DNA of 44,481 bases, taken from a virus (Duplodnaviria; Caudoviricetes). The DNA lies in the IMG/VR virus record IMGVR_UViG_3300037780_000052, positions 1 through 44,481 of that record, one strand, 5' to 3'. The notes under the pieces are model-generated. The model searched no databases. It saw only the letters and a program-made list of their open reading frames with translations, and had not been told where the DNA came from. The translations under genes and the position numbers were made by a program. How positions within the stretch are numbered: position 1 is the stretch's first letter; each line of letters opens with the position of its first letter. Shown here piece by piece: positions 13,554 through 44,481 of the stretch.

Positions 13554-13570
13554 ATGTGCTCTCCGTATAG

Positions 13571-13592
13571 TATTTATTCTCGTCGATAAATA
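13571..13592. promoter_or_regulatory. Back-to-back divergent late promoters
   Basis: TATTTAT at 13571-13577 (ATAAATA on minus, towards gp13) and ATAAATA at 13586-13592 (plus, towards gp14), 8 nt apart. Confidence 0.75.
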
Positions 13593-13616
13593 TGTATAAT
13601 TACAAGGAGAATAGAG

Positions 13617-14777
13617 ATCCCTCGCTTAAGTTTATATAAACCAGATCGTGGTAATGACTATGAATTTCTTGATCGTCAGATTGAAGAAATGTTTACCATC
13701 GGCGGTACAGATATTAATATTCACAAATACCTAGGAGTTGAGGGTGCAGCAGAAGGTCAAGGAACTGCTGATCAGCCTAGCTATGATTCTGTATCGGAAA
13801 CTAATATTCAAGATTTACTGTTTTTAGAAAACAGAGACAGAAAATATGATCCCGATGTTTATACTCATAGAGGCATATACAATGTTCAAGATATAGATTT
13901 TGATCTAAGTCAGTTCGGTTTGTTTTTGAGTAATGATATACTATTTTTAACTGTTCACATTAGAAGTATTGTAAAAACATTAGGGCGTAAACCTATATCA
14001 GGTGATGTAATTGAATTACCGCACTTGAAAGATGAATATGCTGTCAACGACTACAGTTTTGCACTCAAACGGTTCTATGTTATAGAAGATGTTAATCGAG
14101 CAGCAGAAGGATTTACGCAAACTTGGTATCCTCACTTGTATAGATTAAAATTAAAACAAATCTACGATGGTCAAGAATATGCAGAAATACTGGATTTACC
14201 CGCAGGTGAAGATACTGATACCACGCTAAGAGATATTTTCAGCACCTATGAACGTGAAATGCAGATCAACAATGCAGTAGTATCACAAGCAGAAGCTGAC
14301 AGTCCTAGAAGTGGATTCAATACCAAACACTATTACACAGTAGCACAGAACGAAGATGGAACCACTGCATTAAGAACTGTAGACGAACCTATCGATGCCA
14401 GTACATCTAGTCTCACTGCTGACGCACAATTTGATACTCCGGGCAGAGAAGCCTATAGAGGGTATTTAATGAATTACGGAGACGGTGATCCGCCAAATGG
14501 TGCCCCGTATGGTTTTGGTATAAGCTTTCCAGCCAATTCTTACAAAGGTGATTATTTTTTACGTACAGATTTTATGCCAAACAGACTATTTAGATATGAC
14601 GGAACTAGATGGATCAAGGTAGAAGATAATTTACGCATGGATCTATCAAATTCCGACGCAAGAAATACCCATCGTACTAGCTTTACAAATAATACAAATA
14701 CAAACACCATAAGTGGCGAAGTTGTTCCGGAACGACAAGCACTTTCTAAAATACTTAAACCAAAGGCAGATAATTAA
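13617..14777 (+). CDS. gp14: Neck / head closure protein (T4 gp14-like); probable ATC start 24 codons upstream of the ORF-track start (13689)
   Basis: IQDLLFLENRDRKY, DLSQFGLF, LGRKPISGDVIELPHL, FYVIEDV, WYPHL. AAGGAGA at 13604-13610 sits 6 nt before an in-frame ATC CCT CGC TTA AGT TTA TAT. Confidence 0.8.
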   Translation: MPRLSLYKPDRGNDYEFLDRQIEEMFTIGGTDINIHKYLGVEGAAEGQGTADQPSYDSVSETNIQDLLFLENRDRKYDPDVYTHRGIYNVQDIDFDLSQFGLFLSNDILFLTVHIRSIVKTLGRKPISGDVIELPHLKDEYAVNDYSFALKRFYVIEDVNRAAEGFTQTWYPHLYRLKLKQIYDGQEYAEILDLPAGEDTDTTLRDIFSTYEREMQINNAVVSQAEADSPRSGFNTKHYYTVAQNEDGTTALRTVDEPIDASTSSLTADAQFDTPGREAYRGYLMNYGDGDPPNGAPYGFGISFPANSYKGDYFLRTDFMPNRLFRYDGTRWIKVEDNLRMDLSNSDARNTHRTSFTNNTNTNTISGEVVPERQALSKILKPKADN

Positions 14778-32299: not shown

Positions 32300-35200
32300 T
32301 TATCCCAGTGTTAATACATATTCTATTGCAAGATTTTCAGCTTGATTGAAGTTAATTGAACCAGTAGAACCTGCAACTGATACCCAGCTGGTTCCGTCGT
32401 ATATCTCTACATACTGTTGATTTATATTATACCTCATCATACCAGTTTCTAAAAAAGGTGCAAGTGGCCTTTGAACATCATTGCCTACCGGTATAACCAT
32501 GCCCCCAGTACCTTCGAATTTAAAATATCCAGAACCAGTATTTCTTATAAGTGTAATACCGTTTGGTGAAATATTTGTAATGCTCGAATCCTTAAAGGCC
32601 AAATCATCTATCACCACACTGCCTGCGCCATTTGCAGTTAATTGAAGATCATTATTAGTAGAAAGTGTACCAATAACATTTCCGTCAATATATACTTCAT
32701 CAACTTCGATTCTATTTGTTCTAAATCTATCTTGGTCTAGATCTGCTACTAAAACATCATCTGCATAAAATCTAATAACCTTGTCATTTGCACCGGGAGT
32801 CAATTCGGCTGTAATACGTGTGTTTCTATCTAAATCATAAACACCATTCAGTGCTAACCAACTACCGTTATACCCTTCAAATAAATTATCATCTGTGTTA
32901 TAACGTATCATACCTAATTCAGGTGACACTGGTCGTTCTGCTGTTGTTCCTGTAGGAAGATTTAGTGCGCCTGTCGAATCTATTCTAACTGTACCACTAG
33001 CAGCTTCAATATTAATATCTCCACTTAAACTTTCAATAGTGTTTCCGCTTATTCTCAAATTTCCGGTATCTATTTTTTCACCAGTGATATTAGTTGTACT
33101 ACCATTAGTTGTAATACTAATACCATTGCTAGTTTCAATATTAAAATCAGAGTTAGTAAATGTTATTTCACCAGTTTCTTGATTTACATAGAATAGATCA
33201 CCGACTCGGAAGTCTCCTTTGTGGTCTACTGAGCTGTATCTTATCTTAGCATCATTTATTTCAACAACTTCGTTGTCTTGTAAAACAGACGTAGGATCAT
33301 TATTAGAATCTTTTCCATTTCCGATATATGCAAAATTTTGACTAATAAGGTACATCAATACTCCGGGTCCATCGCCGTAAGCACCAATGTTACCATAAAC
33401 ACTGGCGCTGGCTATACTTCTTATCTCACCGCCAAAGTCTGTAAAGTCTGCTAATGTAATAAAATTAGCAGTAGCGCCGCCCGAAAATCTAATATCTTGT
33501 CGTATGTTAGCATCATCAACTATAACACTAGAACTATCGTCACCGTCGAGATGTAACAACAACACAGTTTCTTCATCGCTAGTGAAAGCACTGCTTGGTA
33601 CTGCAAAATTTCCAGTATATCTAGCAACACCTTTAGATATTCTTATTTCATCTAACCAGCCATCCCAGTAATTATTTAAACCATCAAAATTAGATCCAAT
33701 CGCAAGCGATTTAGCTGTTCCATAATCTGTGTTGTCTGTCCAAGAACCAACACTTTGGCCGTTGAGATAAAGCGTTCCAGTGGAACCTGATCTTACATAT
33801 GCAACATGATTCCATTGATTTAAATTAATATCAGAACTACCGGTAACTCTAACACTTCCTAACACATAAACTCTAGGAGTAAGTCCGTTTACTTCCAAAG
33901 TTAATGCATTATTATTAGTAGACCCTACTCTAAAATCTAAAATAGTCTCTAAACCTGTTGATGAAGTTTTGTAAATCCACGATTCAACTGTAAAATCACC
34001 TGTGTTAAAACCAAAATTGTCACTGGAAGCAATTTTTAAATAATCTCCGCTACCATCTAATTTTAAACTAGTTGACCCAAATTGCTTTTGATCATTATCG
34101 AGATATGCATTACCGAAAATCGAAACGATTTTACCGAGGCGTTCATCAAATGTTTCGAAACCTGTTTGTTTTCCGTTTATATAAAATTTTCCATCTGTAT
34201 CAACACTATCAATAGTGCCTGTTGCTAGAACGGTTGTGCCATCTGTATCGTAATAGGTTACAGTTTCTCCTGCGAGATATGATCCTGTAACACCTTCTAC
34301 TCTTAGAGAAGTTTTACCTGCGCCTTTGAGACCTGTTGCTCCATCAAGTGCAGTAAGTCCTCTATTAGCAAAATATGTAAAACAGTTTAACCATTCCACT
34401 CTCGTACCGTTGGTAATAACAACAGCATCGACACCCGGTGTAATAAATGTTACACTGTGAAAAAGACAAGCTGCTTCTCTCGAACTTGCTGTTGCTACTG
34501 CACCATCTAGGTAAGCGCCGCGACCGGCATCACCTTGGTCAAAACCTCTAGGATCTGAACTGCTCGTTACACTTCCGGCGGTGATTACACTGATGTTTTT
34601 AATATAAGGCGAACGACTAGTTACTGTAAATCCCGGTGCAAACTTAAATGCATATCCCGGAGAAAAGAAATTTCTTATAGTAACATCTTCAATAGTTACT
34701 TCACCGTTTAATAAAAATGCATCATTGTTTTGAGTTGCAACTGTAGGTTGTATGTTTACACTTCTTAAACTATGTCCTTTAAGTGTGACTCCCACAGGAA
34801 CAGTTATAGGAAATTCTTCTGTATAAACACCAGGATAAATGTGTACAGTGTCACCTGCACTTGCCTGGCTTAATGCATATTTAACACTTCCAAAAGGATC
34901 ATTGGGATGATCTCCTGAATAGGTATCATCACCATTTTCTGCAACGTAGAAAATATTACCCTGTCGTAATGCAAGATCAACACCATCTACTTCCAGACCA
35001 GTTGTGTTTATTGTACCTGCAAAAAAGTTTTCTACCCAAACATCTTGCCACTGTTGTCCAATTTTTCCTAAACTATATGTGTTGGTTTGATCAGGAATAA
35101 TATCACTGGTTATTTCTGCATTAAATGTTACATTATCGGTATTTGCATCACCAATAGTAATATTGCCTTCTGCAATAACACTTCCAGTTGCAACAATATC

Positions 35201-35629
35201 TCCATAAACATTTGTATCGGCAAAAATTTCTACAGTGCCGGTACCGTTTGGATTTAATTCTAAATTAGTATTAGCACCATTGGTACTAATAACATTAGAA
35301 TCAATATGACCTATGTCAATACTGTCTACAGTTAATTTATTTTGATAAACAACAGTATCAGCTGTGCCAAGAGTAAGAACAGGTTGACTGGTTTCTATCG
35401 TGCTGCCAGTAACAGTTATGTCAGCTATATCAGCAAGTGTACTAACTTGAAGTCCAGTACTTCTAATTACTCCATTTACATCCAACTCGTATTGAGGTGA
35501 AGCAGTATTAATACCGATTCGGCTGTTTACAACATCTAAATATAAAAGATCAGTCTCAAAAGCTAGATTAACTCCTTCACGCAGGAGATCTGCCTTTAAG
35601 AGCGGACCTGATATGCGACCAATAGCCAT
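32300..35629 (-). CDS. Fibre/baseplate-associated protein with beta-helix region and LamG/concanavalin A-like domain (1109 aa)
   Basis: MAIGRISGPLLK; FYVAENGDD...IYPGVYTEEFPI; LamG segment SLKLDGSGDY...GDFTVESWIY...WNHVAYVRSG...GWLDEIRISKGVARY; two P-x-G-x4-RP...GM-x-RYN motifs. Confidence 0.8.
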   Translation of the reverse strand: MAIGRISGPLLKADLLREGVNLAFETDLLYLDVVNSRIGINTASPQYELDVNGVIRSTGLQVSTLADIADITVTGSTIETSQPVLTLGTADTVVYQNKLTVDSIDIGHIDSNVISTNGANTNLELNPNGTGTVEIFADTNVYGDIVATGSVIAEGNITIGDANTDNVTFNAEITSDIIPDQTNTYSLGKIGQQWQDVWVENFFAGTINTTGLEVDGVDLALRQGNIFYVAENGDDTYSGDHPNDPFGSVKYALSQASAGDTVHIYPGVYTEEFPITVPVGVTLKGHSLRSVNIQPTVATQNNDAFLLNGEVTIEDVTIRNFFSPGYAFKFAPGFTVTSRSPYIKNISVITAGSVTSSSDPRGFDQGDAGRGAYLDGAVATASSREAACLFHSVTFITPGVDAVVITNGTRVEWLNCFTYFANRGLTALDGATGLKGAGKTSLRVEGVTGSYLAGETVTYYDTDGTTVLATGTIDSVDTDGKFYINGKQTGFETFDERLGKIVSIFGNAYLDNDQKQFGSTSLKLDGSGDYLKIASSDNFGFNTGDFTVESWIYKTSSTGLETILDFRVGSTNNNALTLEVNGLTPRVYVLGSVRVTGSSDINLNQWNHVAYVRSGSTGTLYLNGQSVGSWTDNTDYGTAKSLAIGSNFDGLNNYWDGWLDEIRISKGVARYTGNFAVPSSAFTSDEETVLLLHLDGDDSSSVIVDDANIRQDIRFSGGATANFITLADFTDFGGEIRSIASASVYGNIGAYGDGPGVLMYLISQNFAYIGNGKDSNNDPTSVLQDNEVVEINDAKIRYSSVDHKGDFRVGDLFYVNQETGEITFTNSDFNIETSNGISITTNGSTTNITGEKIDTGNLRISGNTIESLSGDINIEAASGTVRIDSTGALNLPTGTTAERPVSPELGMIRYNTDDNLFEGYNGSWLALNGVYDLDRNTRITAELTPGANDKVIRFYADDVLVADLDQDRFRTNRIEVDEVYIDGNVIGTLSTNNDLQLTANGAGSVVIDDLAFKDSSITNISPNGITLIRNTGSGYFKFEGTGGMVIPVGNDVQRPLAPFLETGMMRYNINQQYVEIYDGTSWVSVAGSTGSINFNQAENLAIEYVLTLG

Positions 35630-35740
35630 CTCTTTTCCTCAATACGGGGATCCTGTCCCTCCAACCAAATTCTCAGCTCGCGCTCTTTGCTGGTTGACCA
35701 CAGTTTGTCCTGAGGTAGTTTGGTCAACTTACCCTCATTA
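35630..35740 (-). ncRNA. Putative structured cis-regulatory 5' leader RNA
   Basis: About 110-nt GC-rich leader in an AT-rich genome between the ATAAATA promoter and the start codon; several stems including a perfect 8-bp GUUGACCA/UGGUCAAC pairing. Confidence 0.65.
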
Positions 35741-35744
35741 ATAT

Positions 35745-35751
35745 TATTTAT
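35745..35751 (-). promoter_or_regulatory. Late promoter ATAAATA
   Basis: gATAAATAatatt immediately 5' of the structured leader. Confidence 0.7.
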
Positions 35752-35764
35752 CAAAAAATAATGA

Positions 35765-38356
35765 TTATCCTAGTACGAGTGTGTAAATATCAACCAATTC
35801 GGCGAAAACATCTTCAGTGACTACTTCACCGACACCCGCTGCTCTCTGCCACCCAGTGCCATTCCAAACTTCGAGATATTCTTGATCTGTATTCCACCTA
35901 GTATCACCTGTTTCAGGAGCAGAAGGTTGTTGATCATCGCTACCATAAGGAACAACAAAGCCTAAATTTGTATCAAATTTAACATAACCTCTGTCGGTAA
36001 CAAATAAACTTAAATTATCATTTTCAAAATTTTCTATGATATTTGAATATAAAAACAAACTTTCTATCTGTGTCAAACTTGATCCATTTGGTGTTAATTC
36101 TAAATCACTATTAGAAGTCGTAGTTGTAATTATATTGCTTTCAATGGATATATCTCCATTGGAAAATTTATTTAATTCTATGTTGCCAAACTTACCTTGA
36201 CTACTGTCATCTAAATTAACTGCGTTTCCTGAAAATCTTGCAACTTCTGTATCATCAATTGTAAAAATTATATCTTTCTGAGTATTATTTGCAGTGACTC
36301 TGGTTCTTGTGTTTTCTGAATATACACCACCGAAAGTAATATTTGCTGTGGTATATCCTTGAAACAAATCTGTGTCCGAATTATACCTTATATCTGATTC
36401 TTCATTTTTTCTTTGAGATTGTGACCCTACAGCAATTCTAAAATTTAAATTATTATCAAGATTTACAAATCCTGAATCTAATTTCCAAATAACATCTCCT
36501 GCGAGACCAATTATACTATTTCCACTAAATCTGATATTACCAATGTCAATTCTTTCACCGTCAATGTAAGTGATATTTCCACCATCGTTAATGAATATAC
36601 TGTTTATCCCAGCAAAATTGATACTATCTATGTCAATACTAGCAGTACCATCTTCAAAATTTACGTAAAATGCATTACCTATTCTAAAAGTTCCATCGGC
36701 ATCAGTTGATGTAAAATAAATTTTACCTTGATTTATTTCTTGAATTTCTTGATCAAATAACGTAAGTGTTCTATCATTCGATGAATTTTTTCCAGAACCA
36801 ATATAAGCAAAATTATGTCCTATCAAGTACATTAAAACATCAGAACCGTCTGCTACTGCTCCGAAATTACCGTAGATATTGGCACTGCCTATTGATCTTA
36901 GTTCTATTCTTGTATTCGAAAAAGCATCGCCGCCTTCTAGAATATTATTTGATTCAGTATTTGCATCACCTGCATCATAGGTTTCTGTGATTGTTCCTGT
37001 GACAGCAAATTCTGCGTCAAAATTATTTTCATCAATAAATGCATACAACCCCCTGTTAGCAAAATATGTAAATGAATTTAACCATTCTACTCTAACCCCG
37101 TTGGTCATTGAAAGTGCATCTACACCAGGAGTAATAAAAGTAACACTGTGAAACAACATACTAGGAGTAAGAGTAGCCTCGTTTACAACAGAACCGTCGA
37201 CCAAAGCCCCTCGTCCTGCATCCCCTGTGTCAAATCCTCTAGGATCAGATTCACTTGTAACTGTACCTCTAGTGATTACACTCACGTTTCTTACGTATGG
37301 TGATCGTTCAGTAATTATTGCATCAGGTGCAAAGCCAAATGCATAGCCGGGACTGTAAAAATCTGTAACTGTTAAATTTTCAACTGTACAATTTTGATTT
37401 AAATAAAAAGCATCACTGTTTTGAGTGGCTACTGTGGGTCTAATAATAACATTACGGATATCTTCGCCGCTTACAGTAACACGCTCAGGTAATGTCAACG
37501 GAAATTCTTCTTCGTATTCTCCTGGGTAAATATGAATTGTAACAGGTCCTTCGGAACTTGCATCAGCAACACTGAGTGCATGTTTTAGTGTTCTAAATGC
37601 ACCGTGCTGGTGATCACCTGTGTTAGTGTCATCGCCTAGTGTACTTACATAAAAAATATTTCCTTGTCTTAGTGCTAAACTAGTATCACTTACAGTTAAA
37701 TCATCGACTGTTATCTGTTGCCCATTAAGAAGATTTGAATATAAATTCAGCCATTTTTTGGTATCAGAGCCTAGATCAAAAGTATTATTTGTGTCTGGTA
37801 TAATGTCACTGTTTATGTCTGCATTAAACTCCACTCCATCAGTATCATCGTCTCCCAATGTTAATGCAGCGTTAAAAGTTATATTACCGGTACTGTATAA
37901 AGATCCGGTGATGTTTGTGTTAGATTTTATATCAAGTATACCCGAACTAGGTCTCAATTCTAAATTAGTGTCAGGAGTGTGTGTAGAAATAGTATTTTCA
38001 TTGATAGTTATGTCATCTGTTTCGAGATGACTTACATTAATTCTATCACCTGCACGAAAAATTAGATCTCCGCTATTACTGACAATTTCATTTCCGATGT
38101 TAGAACCGTTGTTTGTAATATATTGTAAACTGATATTACCTATATTAGCATATGGAGAGATCAAATTCGTGCTAGCCACAGCACCATTTATTTCAAGAAC
38201 ATCATTCGGGCTTTCAGTGTTAATACCTATTTTTCTGTCTGTAACTTCTAGATGAAGTAAAGCAGTATCACTTACTGTGTTTTTGAAATTTAAATTTGAT
38301 GTTCTTAAAAGGTTGTCTTTTAAGAGCTGTCCAGATATTCTACCTATTTCTGACAT
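35765..38356 (-). CDS. Fibre/baseplate-associated protein, paralog of the 1109-aa protein lacking LamG (863 aa)
   Basis: MSEIGRISGQLLKDNLLR; shares LALRQGNIFYV, RSPY, SDPRGFD-x-GDAGRGA, FHSVTFITPGVDA, RVEWLN-x-FTYFANRGL and C-terminal L-x-LG. Confidence 0.8.
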   Translation of the reverse strand: MSEIGRISGQLLKDNLLRTSNLNFKNTVSDTALLHLEVTDRKIGINTESPNDVLEINGAVASTNLISPYANIGNISLQYITNNGSNIGNEIVSNSGDLIFRAGDRINVSHLETDDITINENTISTHTPDTNLELRPSSGILDIKSNTNITGSLYSTGNITFNAALTLGDDDTDGVEFNADINSDIIPDTNNTFDLGSDTKKWLNLYSNLLNGQQITVDDLTVSDTSLALRQGNIFYVSTLGDDTNTGDHQHGAFRTLKHALSVADASSEGPVTIHIYPGEYEEEFPLTLPERVTVSGEDIRNVIIRPTVATQNSDAFYLNQNCTVENLTVTDFYSPGYAFGFAPDAIITERSPYVRNVSVITRGTVTSESDPRGFDTGDAGRGALVDGSVVNEATLTPSMLFHSVTFITPGVDALSMTNGVRVEWLNSFTYFANRGLYAFIDENNFDAEFAVTGTITETYDAGDANTESNNILEGGDAFSNTRIELRSIGSANIYGNFGAVADGSDVLMYLIGHNFAYIGSGKNSSNDRTLTLFDQEIQEINQGKIYFTSTDADGTFRIGNAFYVNFEDGTASIDIDSINFAGINSIFINDGGNITYIDGERIDIGNIRFSGNSIIGLAGDVIWKLDSGFVNLDNNLNFRIAVGSQSQRKNEESDIRYNSDTDLFQGYTTANITFGGVYSENTRTRVTANNTQKDIIFTIDDTEVARFSGNAVNLDDSSQGKFGNIELNKFSNGDISIESNIITTTTSNSDLELTPNGSSLTQIESLFLYSNIIENFENDNLSLFVTDRGYVKFDTNLGFVVPYGSDDQQPSAPETGDTRWNTDQEYLEVWNGTGWQRAAGVGEVVTEDVFAELVDIYTLVLG

Positions 38357-40252: not shown

Positions 40253-40268
40253 ATTGAGATCCTGAATG

Positions 40269-40294
40269 AATTATGGGGATTGCTCCCCATAATT
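40269..40294 (-). terminator. 11-bp hairpin with GCAA tetraloop (terminator or stabiliser)
   Basis: AATTATGGGGA-GCAA-TCCCCATAATT directly at the stop of the 149-aa gene; weak U-tract. Confidence 0.7.
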
Positions 40295-40742
40295 ATAGTG
40301 CAGTTAAAACTAAAACAGTAGTGGTTGAATCGTCTTGTATTTCCCAAGTATAACGATTGTTTGAAAAATCTCTACAAGTTCTGTTGTAAAACTTTTTAAT
40401 TCTAATAGTGGTGGTAGAACTATCTTCATCAAAAAGTATACCTTCAATAATCATTTCATTAGCTGCTAGGGTACCTGGTGTTTTGTCTACCAGTTTGCAA
40501 ATTCCTACATTACCTTGAGCTCCGGTATCACCCAAGTCATCATTGGTGCCTGTTTTTACATCATTTACCAAAAATTTTGTAGTGCTACGCTGGCGAAGAA
40601 TATAAGCTTCATCAGTTTCGGTGTTTGCGCCTACTTTGGCACTAATTGTAATATTATAAAATGTATCATTTTTTGGTGCAAATCTTGAATCATCTGCATC
40701 TGGTAATCTACCAAACCATCTTTTATTAAGTGGACGTCCCAT
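40293..40742 (-). CDS. Conserved virion protein following the major capsid gene (149 aa), possibly head-associated
   Basis: MGRPLNKRWFG...YILRQRSTTKFLV...GICKL; strong AAAGGAGA RBS, own promoter and structured leader. Confidence 0.7.
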   Translation of the reverse strand: MGRPLNKRWFGRLPDADDSRFAPKNDTFYNITISAKVGANTETDEAYILRQRSTTKFLVNDVKTGTNDDLGDTGAQGNVGICKLVDKTPGTLAANEMIIEGILFDEDSSTTTIRIKKFYNRTCRDFSNNRYTWEIQDDSTTTVLVLTAL

Positions 40743-40826
40743 TTGTTTTCTCCTTTGCTAGACGTTCTAGGTCATACGCGGTGGGTTGATTCCGCATAAG
40801 TCCTCATTGAGGCGCAGTTTATGACT
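40743..40826 (-). ncRNA. Putative structured cis-regulatory 5' leader RNA
   Basis: GC-rich leader with stems GUCAUA/UAUGAC, CCUC/GAGG, UAUGCGG/CCGCGUA and CUAGA/UCUAG between promoter and RBS. Confidence 0.6.
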
Positions 40827-43864: not shown

Positions 43865-44481
43865 TTACTTTGCGCGAGTGCTTACTTTGTTAAGTGTGCT
43901 AGTTGCGCTCTTGTCAGCAGTGTCTGGCTTACCTTTCTTTTCGGCGCCATGTCCTGGCTCAGACTTTTTAAATGCAGTCTTGCCAGCTTTACCTCCTGGG
44001 ACATTAATATTTTTTGTACTCATGTCTTTTGGAGATTGGTTTGAAAGTGACGAGCCTTTTAGCTTTCCTTTGTTAGCTTCAACACCTTGCTCAGTATCAG
44101 TACGCAGAATGTTTTGGCTGGTTCCGCCCATATCATTTTTACCTGCTACTGCGCTTTTAGTGTTTGCGCCGTTGTCGCCCATTTTACCGTATTGGTTGTA
44201 CTGTGCGCCGCCAACTTTTTCTACGTATTCACGCATTTCTTCGCCAGCAGTTTTTTTAGCTTTTTTGTCATCTTTCTTCATCTTTTTTGATTCATAAGCA
44301 AAAGACTCTTTCGACTCTTCGTCATTATCCATGTCCATGTCATCGTCATCCATGTCATCATCATCCATGTCGCCATCATCCATGTCCATGTCGTCATCAT
44401 CCATGTCCATGTCATCGTCGCCCATGTCCATGTCATCGTCTGACATTAATGCTTCAAATTCTGCTTTTAGATCTTCAATTG
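43865..44481 (-). CDS. Acidic prohead core-like protein (5'-partial; frame open to window end)
   Basis: Frame continues upstream of the ORF-track start as ...IEDLKAEFEALMSDDDMDM...; D/M-rich tract, MREY site and basic low-complexity tail; directly upstream of gp21. Confidence 0.7.
   Translation of the reverse strand, partial: IEDLKAEFEALMSDDDMDMGDDDMDMDDDDMDMDDGDMDDDDMDDDDMDMDNDEESKESFAYESKKMKKDDKKAKKTAGEEMREYVEKVGGAQYNQYGKMGDNGANTKSAVAGKNDMGGTSQNILRTDTEQGVEANKGKLKGSSLSNQSPKDMSTKNINVPGGKAGKTAFKKSEPGHGAEKKGKPDTADKSATSTLNKVSTRAK
44325..44446 (-). repeat. In-frame low-complexity tandem repeat encoding (D)2-4-M / DDDMDM units
   Basis: Repeated gtccat/gtcatc/gtcgtc units such as catccatgtccatgtc; translation MSDDDMDMGDDDMDMDDDDMDMDDGDMDDDDMDDDDMDMDN. 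Confidence 0.9.

Follow-up and report, generated by a model that had tools for sequence, protein, structure and literature searches.

Control of the late virion genes of T4-type phages is usually ascribed to promoters and simple ribosome sites. Among the structured leaders described in these phages is that of gene 32 in T4, T2 and RB69, which a 2010 review considered possibly the only viral pseudoknot used in translational autoregulation; in the review's account, no T4 riboswitch was known (PMC3014915). It also describes start-site hairpins in the T4 genes e, soc, 49 and I-TevI, in which the late promoter lies inside the structure and the late mRNA escapes it (PMC3014915). In bacteria, comparable elements include the S4 operator (rpsM, in the E. 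coli alpha-operon) and the S15 operators of rpsO in E. coli and mycobacteria, the latter requiring a U-G/C-G motif (PMC10931766). Here we describe a leader RNA ahead of a fibre gene in a clade of uncultured jumbo phages. On balance, and from sequence comparison and analogy, we lean towards reading it as a conserved late-mRNA leader whose helices are predicted to cage the ribosome-binding site and likely repress initiation, probably under a phage assembly protein that binds its invariant core.

The window (the whole 44.5-kb stretch of DNA that was analysed) is a piece of a T4-like jumbo phage, an uncultured giant phage whose capsid protein is 68-71% identical to those of Sinorhizobium phage Phosso, Vibrio phage 2.275.O and PA5oct-type phages. 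All features discussed below are on the minus strand unless stated otherwise. The leader lies in a 135-nt gap between two paralogous virion genes, with a GC content of 41% against 37% for the window. At its upstream end stands the T4-type late promoter-like sequence GATAAATA (35745..35752), for which T4 precedent as reviewed in PMC3014915 suggests a promoter function, and the motif NNTAAATA is found upstream of 301 of the 304 leaders that we compared. The gene that would be regulated (paralogue B, 32300..35629) encodes an 1109-aa virion protein resembling fibres and baseplate wedges, with a LamG domain (PF13385) at residues 525-666 and a PHROG match to a baseplate wedge subunit (E 8e-215). Modelling of its N-terminus gave a low-confidence monomer (pLDDT 66) that had no PDB match at E<=0.001; the best results of a fold search were weak matches to Bdellovibrio fibres (E 0.46 or worse), and an Atlas search matched nameless viral clusters only. 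The products of this gene and of the two small genes downstream are acidic (pI 4.2-4.4), and no RNA-binding domain was found in any of the three. The upstream paralogue A (35765..38356) encodes 863 aa beginning with MSEIGRISG, has its own late promoter and lacks the RNA, and we used it as a control. Gene order is fixed, with the capsid gene followed by a freshwater-2 RNA, four genes and paralogue A, and then by the promoter, the RNA and paralogue B, which places the RNA just past a late promoter and ahead of fibre genes that extend over ~10 kb. A 183-aa-type gene immediately precedes the RNA in some of the phages. The preliminary description of this locus had suggested that the leader might choose between the paralogous fibres, and we found nothing to that effect, as the order of the genes is fixed and each paralogue has its own late promoter.

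Several other features of this region are worth recording. In several V2 phages (L073 2787-2789, L097, L224 and L324), paralogue A has neither promoter nor Shine-Dalgarno sequence (SD) and starts 0-2 nt past the previous stop, which suggests translational coupling. One lineage (L063, L068 and L072) carries a second, simpler structured leader, a small hairpin GGUAC..GUACC located after the late promoter and 45 nt upstream of the paralogue-A start. The freshwater-2 RNA is an Rfam match at 40740-40813 (53.5 bits), behind a late promoter; it precedes a 149-aa gene with a basic N-terminus directly after the capsid gene and was found in four of five related genomes, so that the motif can be assigned a definite place in these jumbo phages, within the region for late morphogenesis. 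A further hairpin, UUAUGGGGAGCAAUCCCCAUAA (40253-40292), lies in a 40-nt gap without a U-tract upstream of a 325-aa gene that has no clear SD. The head protein at the end of the window contains an Asp/Met-rich repeat (DDDMDM, 44319-44458). On the plus strand, a 362-aa open reading frame annotated from 13689 probably starts at ~13600, as 13554-13688 holds an open frame with an SD-like GGAG, ahead of which lies a late promoter at 13586.

Gene-anchored searches and DNA-pattern scans gathered at least 304 distinct leaders, 182 of which were found without the core pattern and form an unbiased subset. The loosest pattern also returned at least nine chance matches without promoter, P3 or gene, which a stricter parser removed; this parser missed five true leaders that stand outside the 304 (L588, L554, L475, L565 and L610). 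All 304 listed leaders directly precede an M-x-GR[IV]SG fibre gene, with no metabolic or transport gene downstream of any, and the RNA occurs only before the second paralogue (B), being absent from 47 RNA-less paralogue starts. With a covariance model of the RNA, a single copy was found in the window and in each of five phage records, of which one is complete, and none in Sinorhizobium phage Phosso or Vibrio phage 2.275.O. No cultured relative was found by tblastn of the fibre-gene N-terminus against 50,697 phage records, and the leader itself was matched by blastn only over 30 nt at its SD end. In lineage L525, the fibre gene is present and the RNA is absent. Some contigs of the clade (L520-L532) lie inside metagenome-assembled genomes of unrelated bacteria and archaea (Crocinitomicaceae, Marinimicrobia, Rickettsiales and others) and are probably mis-binned, so that the host cannot be read from these bins. 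Spacing differs on the two sides of the RNA, as the end of P3 lies 16-17 nt upstream of the start codon in 258 of the 304 leaders, whereas the distance from promoter to core varies freely between 8 and 63 nt.

Against Rfam 15, neither the window leader nor the leaders of 17 related loci had a match at gathering score, a check that had been proposed from the outset; a scan of 35500-35900 returned only mir-379 (E 2.7), and 13 further loci gave no match at E<=1. We found no description of this RNA in the literature compared, outside of which lay the alignments of Fremin 2023 (PMC10690425) and the supplement of Weinberg 2017 (PMC5737381). It is plausible that it was already listed as an unnamed candidate in the former, because IMG/VR was screened there (PMC10690425).

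Alone, the window leader folds no better than its shuffles, with a z of -0.65 and an equally good fold in 55 of the 200, and it is comparison with relatives that shows a real conserved structure despite this unremarkable single-sequence folding. The element spans 35744-35598, ~150 nt reaching ~32 nt into the gene, and consists from 5' to 3' of a hairpin (P1, with loop GACCA), an H-type pseudoknot core (S1 and S2), the hairpin P3 and the SD. A structured leader had been claimed for this locus from the window alone; the leader is real and covarying, with a different wiring and an extent that continues to ~35598 inside the gene. Every sequence, coordinate and complementarity that had been listed is present in the window, among them GUUGACCA (35728-35721) with UGGUCAAC (35700-35693), CAACCA with UGGUUG (35667-35662), GGGA with UCCC, and CCUCA (35715-35711) with the UGAGG at 35641-35637. 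Of these pairings, P1, the CAACC/GGUUG stem and GGGA/UCCC proved conserved, and the proposed covariation check on leaders of MAIGRISG-type genes found S1, S2 and P3 compensated.

P1 (35711..35737) is a variable 5' hairpin, UGAGG..AGUU / AACU..CCUCA, that folds at -8.2 kcal/mol in the window and has a median z of -2.6 against shuffles over 299 leaders; L524 and L677 lack it wholly. Its loop GACCA (35721..35725) is the putative kissing strand, with GACC in 252 of the 304 leaders and ACC inside the hairpin loop in 212 of 251. The core begins with an unpaired AC (35703..35704) that is invariant in alignments A2 and A3, partly owing to the search patterns, and for which no covarying partner was found; a helix of this AC with the GU of the P3 tail is complementary in 289 and 303 of 304 and never compensated, with a third pair in 94 of 304. 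S1 (35688..35702) comprises three base pairs, UGU/GCA (U35702-A35688, G35701-C35689 and U35700.G35690), and covariation links the base at position 3 of ACUGUGGU to the third one of GCAA. This first pair is U-A in 272, C-G in 25 and A-U in 7 of the 304 leaders (162, 13 and 7 in the unbiased 182), and on a tree of 296 proteins all 12 changes of this pair are double. The U.G beside the G-C is kept in 294 of 304, with C-G in 8 and U-A in 2 (position 5 of ACUGUGGU). We rejected a palindrome or dimer reading of ACUGUGGU, which some variants fitted, as its position 3 covaries with GCAA and the A-U forms break the palindrome.

Between the S1 strands lie L1 (GG, 35699-35698) and the 5' strand of S2 (UCAACCA, 35697-35691), which pairs with 35668 and 35666-35661 in a helix of 7 bp with one bulged base (S2, 35661..35697). 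Paired cells make up 93.4% of the S2 alignment, compared with 81.7% when shuffled and at most 42.8% when slid, and there are 107 double changes against 31.5 in shuffles, with C-G to U-A swaps in L588, L475 and L565. S1 crosses S2, giving an H-type pseudoknot with GG as L1; such a fold had been proposed from the window, where it was built from the 8-bp helix of GUUGACCA and UGGUCAAC rather than from UGU/GCA and S2. L3 (35687-35669, inside S2) holds a UGNAA-like segment and a hairpin, AGC-GCGA-GCU (35684-35675), with 37 gains or losses on the tree; the CAGC/GCUG hairpin reported earlier corresponds to it, its AGC/GCU part being conserved where present and the whole being optional and missing from the short forms. 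In five similar leaders, L079 and L332 among them, an extra hairpin is inserted in the middle of the UGNAA segment, which is therefore probably not a closed T-loop. Resemblances to other folds (a TPP-like T-loop, SAM-II and hatchet) had no Rfam support.

Downstream of the core, P3 (35644..35659) is the hairpin GGGA-CAGGA-UCCC with a conserved tail (C)GU, and it occurs in compensated forms: GGGA/UCCC, GGCA/UGCC (23 of 304) and CCGU/ACGG (97 of 304). GGGA/UCCC and CCGU/ACGG were written into the parser, whereas the G-C/C-G swap was left free, and the third pair shows 8 double changes on the tree. The SD, GAGGA (35636..35640), begins 6-7 nt past P3 in 253 of the 304 leaders. Outside these helices, AC, GG, A-N-G, AA and the GU of the tail hardly vary, and no base covaries with them. 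RNAalifold recovered S2 only, because it misses pseudoknots and because MAFFT did not align P3 between V1 and V2. In a nested-only ensemble of the window, S2 has a probability of 0.23, below the 8-bp loop helix (0.7) and another alternative (0.76).

Comparison suggests that the partner of the P1 loop lies in the gene itself, at GGUC in codons 4-5 (Gly-Arg, 35617..35620). All 252 leaders with GACC have GGU-C at Gly4-Arg5, whereas GGUC occurs in 8 of 47 RNA-less paralogues, and GGA (12 of 52) and AGA (9 of 52) are found at these codons only where the loop is not GACC. GACC is absent from those 52 leaders, two of which have no P1 altogether, and pairing between the codon and the last of the five loop bases holds in no more than 171 of 251. 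The codon bias alone proves little, because GGU is favoured at the second Gly as well (269 of 304) and CGN at later Arg codons (252 of 307). Four leaders with a GUCC loop have GGA-C at these codons while the core keeps GGU, with two separate origins of GUCC:GGAC and one reversal. The earlier proposal that the P1 loop pairs with UGGUCAAC in the core conflicts with this, as the change in the loop is compensated in the codon.

A second predicted contact with the coding region is the start-site hairpin P4 (35598..35634), in which AAGAG-A-UGG (35634-35626) pairs with CCGCUCUU (35605-35598, codons 9-11). These codons, CCG CUC UU, are rare here and pair over the region of SD, spacer and AUG. At codons 9-10, CCG accounts for 252 of 281 Pro codons and CUC for 240 of 297 Leu codons. 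The corresponding counts are 8 of 16 and 2 of 22 for the paralogues, and 46 of 266 and 25 of 575 for eight large genes of the window. P4 pairs 7.1 bases compared with 4.7 after synonymous recoding, while the paralogues show no excess (3.2 against 3.1, in a set of 53 that includes five mis-parsed leaders); only 12% of 193 leaders beat all 20 recodings. In swap tests on 193 leaders below 90% identity, cognate spacer:codon duplexes had an energy of -7.82 kcal/mol, compared with -7.35 +/- 0.07 when swapped, and 0 of 300 swaps were as good. The advantage held within V1 (0 of 300), the larger class, in which comparison thus argues for P4; V2 taken by itself showed no covariation, with 179 of 300 swaps doing equally well. 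Of 66 non-consensus cases, 20 had a weaker pairing than their swapped counterparts. V2 forms pair CCGCUCUU with GGAGAGC, and ACAAUGG-type spacers go with CCGUUGU. The register slides between SD and AUG (76.8% of cells paired), with at least two AUG bases paired in 88 of 193 leaders and at least two SD bases in 93 of 193. The GGUC target of the P1 loop falls in the P4 loop region, so that the two helices can coexist. The strand predicted to cover the ribosome site is accordingly CCGCUCUU and not CCUCA, which had been put forward as an anti-SD; CCUCA occurs in 3 of 304 leaders, and the P1 region contains sequences complementary to the SD less often than shuffled versions do. We rejected an ON state in which AAGAGC of L3 pairs with CGCUCUU (probability 0.76 in the window), as 76 of 300 swaps were as good and the pairing is absent in short forms.

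Sequence comparison thus supports S1, S2, P3, the loop-codon helix, P4 in V1, a fixed start spacing, one copy per genome and strict linkage to one gene, and the view of the preliminary description that this is a cis-regulatory pseudoknotted RNA outside the Rfam families, tied to the fibre gene and probably acting on translation, is borne out at this level. Our inference is that in vivo the helices fold at the same time and reduce translation, with the balance set by a protein. The predicted pairing with the gene's own first codons likely keeps translation down until a partner acts. On the late mRNA, the pseudoknot core would fold, P4 would cover the SD-AUG region, and the P1 loop may lock P4 by pairing at +10 to +13. 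The locked cage might then block or trap the 30S subunit, as described for the S4 and S15 operators (PMC10931766), with a factor likely bound to the invariant core deciding between the locked and the open form. The purpose would likely be to match the output of a low-copy baseplate or fibre subunit to tail assembly. A phage assembly protein is favoured as the controller by analogy with gp32 (PMC3014915) and with the scaffolding protein of P22, whose free form is described as limiting its own synthesis (PMC5529062). Two proteins of 149 and 183 aa, whose N-termini are basic, are further candidate binders, while autoregulation by the 1109-aa protein or its two small neighbours of 109 and 124 aa is weakened by their acidity and by the lack of an RNA-binding domain among them. 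A search for RegA in five genomes gave no match, with a control query equally matchless.

Other explanations share much of this evidence. The same fold could be a ligand-free attenuator that sets a low, fixed or delayed rate of initiation and that only the ribosome itself opens, for instance by means of its protein S1. Neither P4 nor the loop-codon helix requires a partner, the searches yielded no candidate RNA-binding protein, T4 has start-site structures that inhibit without a ligand (PMC3014915), and pseudoknots are described as high-affinity targets of S1 (PMC10931766); however, a plain hairpin would do for this purpose, and a covarying pseudoknot surrounded by near-invariant, unpaired AC, GG, A-N-G, AA and GU indicates a surface for specific binding, which leaves an attenuator rather unlikely. 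Such a surface might instead be the aptamer of a small-molecule riboswitch, with P4 and the loop-codon helix as the expression platform and fibre output tied to a host metabolite or ion. A covarying, aptamer-like domain is indeed present in the 5' UTR: the pseudoknot is compact, many of its loop bases do not vary, the hairpin at its periphery is optional and a helix at the start site lies next to it. Its architecture presumably resembles those of the SAM-II, preQ1-II and guanidine-III riboswitches, with which it was compared through Rfam only. We nevertheless regard a riboswitch as unlikely: every one of the 304 listed leaders precedes a structural fibre gene and none a metabolic or transport gene, Rfam returned no riboswitch at E<=10, and there is no conserved strand exchange between core and P4, with an L3:codon pairing that lacks covariation. 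Of the two folds that an expression platform would alternate between, the OFF helix (P4) has support, and no conserved ON helix was found. In its broadest form, this would be a riboswitch or assembly-checkpoint RNA of a new fold on a phage virion gene, whose ligand-binding H-type pseudoknot would act by way of the kissing helix between loop and codons and of a hairpin at the start site encoded in synonymous codons. A host metabolite or an unassembled tail intermediate would thereby switch fibre and baseplate synthesis in a large uncultured jumbo-phage clade, and this too we hold to be improbable.

A compact pseudoknot with invariant bases directly after a promoter could also be a self-cleaving ribozyme, or could stabilise the late mRNA by blocking nucleases at its 5' end. 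Rfam gave no pistol, hatchet, twister, hammerhead or HDV-like match, a pistol-like CUGU/ACAG pairing is broken by the ACCGCGGU forms, the RNA occurs as a single copy in one gene context, and neither role accounts for the selection on codons 4-5 and 9-11, all of which makes these roles very unlikely. The location just past a late promoter with ~10 kb of fibre genes downstream would equally suit a put-like cis-acting transcription antiterminator for a long fibre operon, yet it is the distance to the start codon that is fixed and not that to the promoter, the pairing extends into codons, and only two weak 5-pair terminator-like sites lie inside the gene on the minus strand; we consider the chance of this to be close to nil. 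Hardly more credible is the switch proposed in the preliminary description, in which the 8-bp pseudoknot of GUUGACCA and UGGUCAAC alternates with CAACCA/UGGUUG and CCUCA serves as the anti-SD. Its duplexes have energies of -12.2 and -7.4 kcal/mol in the window, and a loop-core pairing of 3-4 bp, (A)CCA/UGG(U), is possible in most relatives, with at least four Watson-Crick pairs in 224 of 304. The full 8 bp, however, occur only in the window (1 of 304; 182 leaders have 4 pairs and 39 have 5), and covariation is absent, as 65.7% of cells are paired in alignment A3 and the number of double changes was reached by 125 of 500 shuffles. As a family mechanism the switch is thus largely refuted; being thermodynamically strong here, the 8-bp helix may form in this phage as a competing fold.

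If the caged late-mRNA leader that we favour is correct, giant aquatic phages of a widespread clade place one of their structural genes under a conserved and doubly knotted control element, and an RNA shapes the synonymous codons of its own fibre gene. Its length of ~150 nt and the natural compensatory variants of most helices make it directly testable by probing and reporters, and the invariant core is a ready target for ligand discovery.

Among the systems introduced above, freshwater-2 (RF02980) is likewise a structured leader of late mRNA in these phages, at a distance of 5 kb and before the gene that follows the capsid gene; it differs in sequence, fold and gene, and the model of the fibre-gene RNA does not match it. 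The start-site hairpins of e, soc, 49 and I-TevI likewise hold the SD and/or AUG in a helix as described for T4 (PMC3014915), but here all strands are downstream of the late promoter motif, so that the late mRNA itself would be locked. Relative to the S4 operator (PMC10931766), this RNA has no Rfam match, belongs to a late virion gene of a phage, and combines a separate compact H-type core upstream with a hairpin of codons 9-11 over the start. The rpsO operators offer a pseudoknot upstream of or embracing the start site (PMC10931766); S1 has a U.G beside G-C, replaced by C-G or U-A in 10 leaders, and the gene here is non-ribosomal and the topology another. The regulated genes here encode acidic fibre- or baseplate-like proteins, and no nucleic-acid-binding repressor was found among them. 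The gene 32 leader is also from T4-type phages, and its H-type pseudoknot, too, stacks two stems ahead of the start, with likely translational repression (PMC3014915). Judged from sequence comparison, the fibre-gene RNA places its pseudoknot at or around the ribosome-binding site with fixed spacing, and it belongs to none of the families compared and likely functions like a translational operator pseudoknot.
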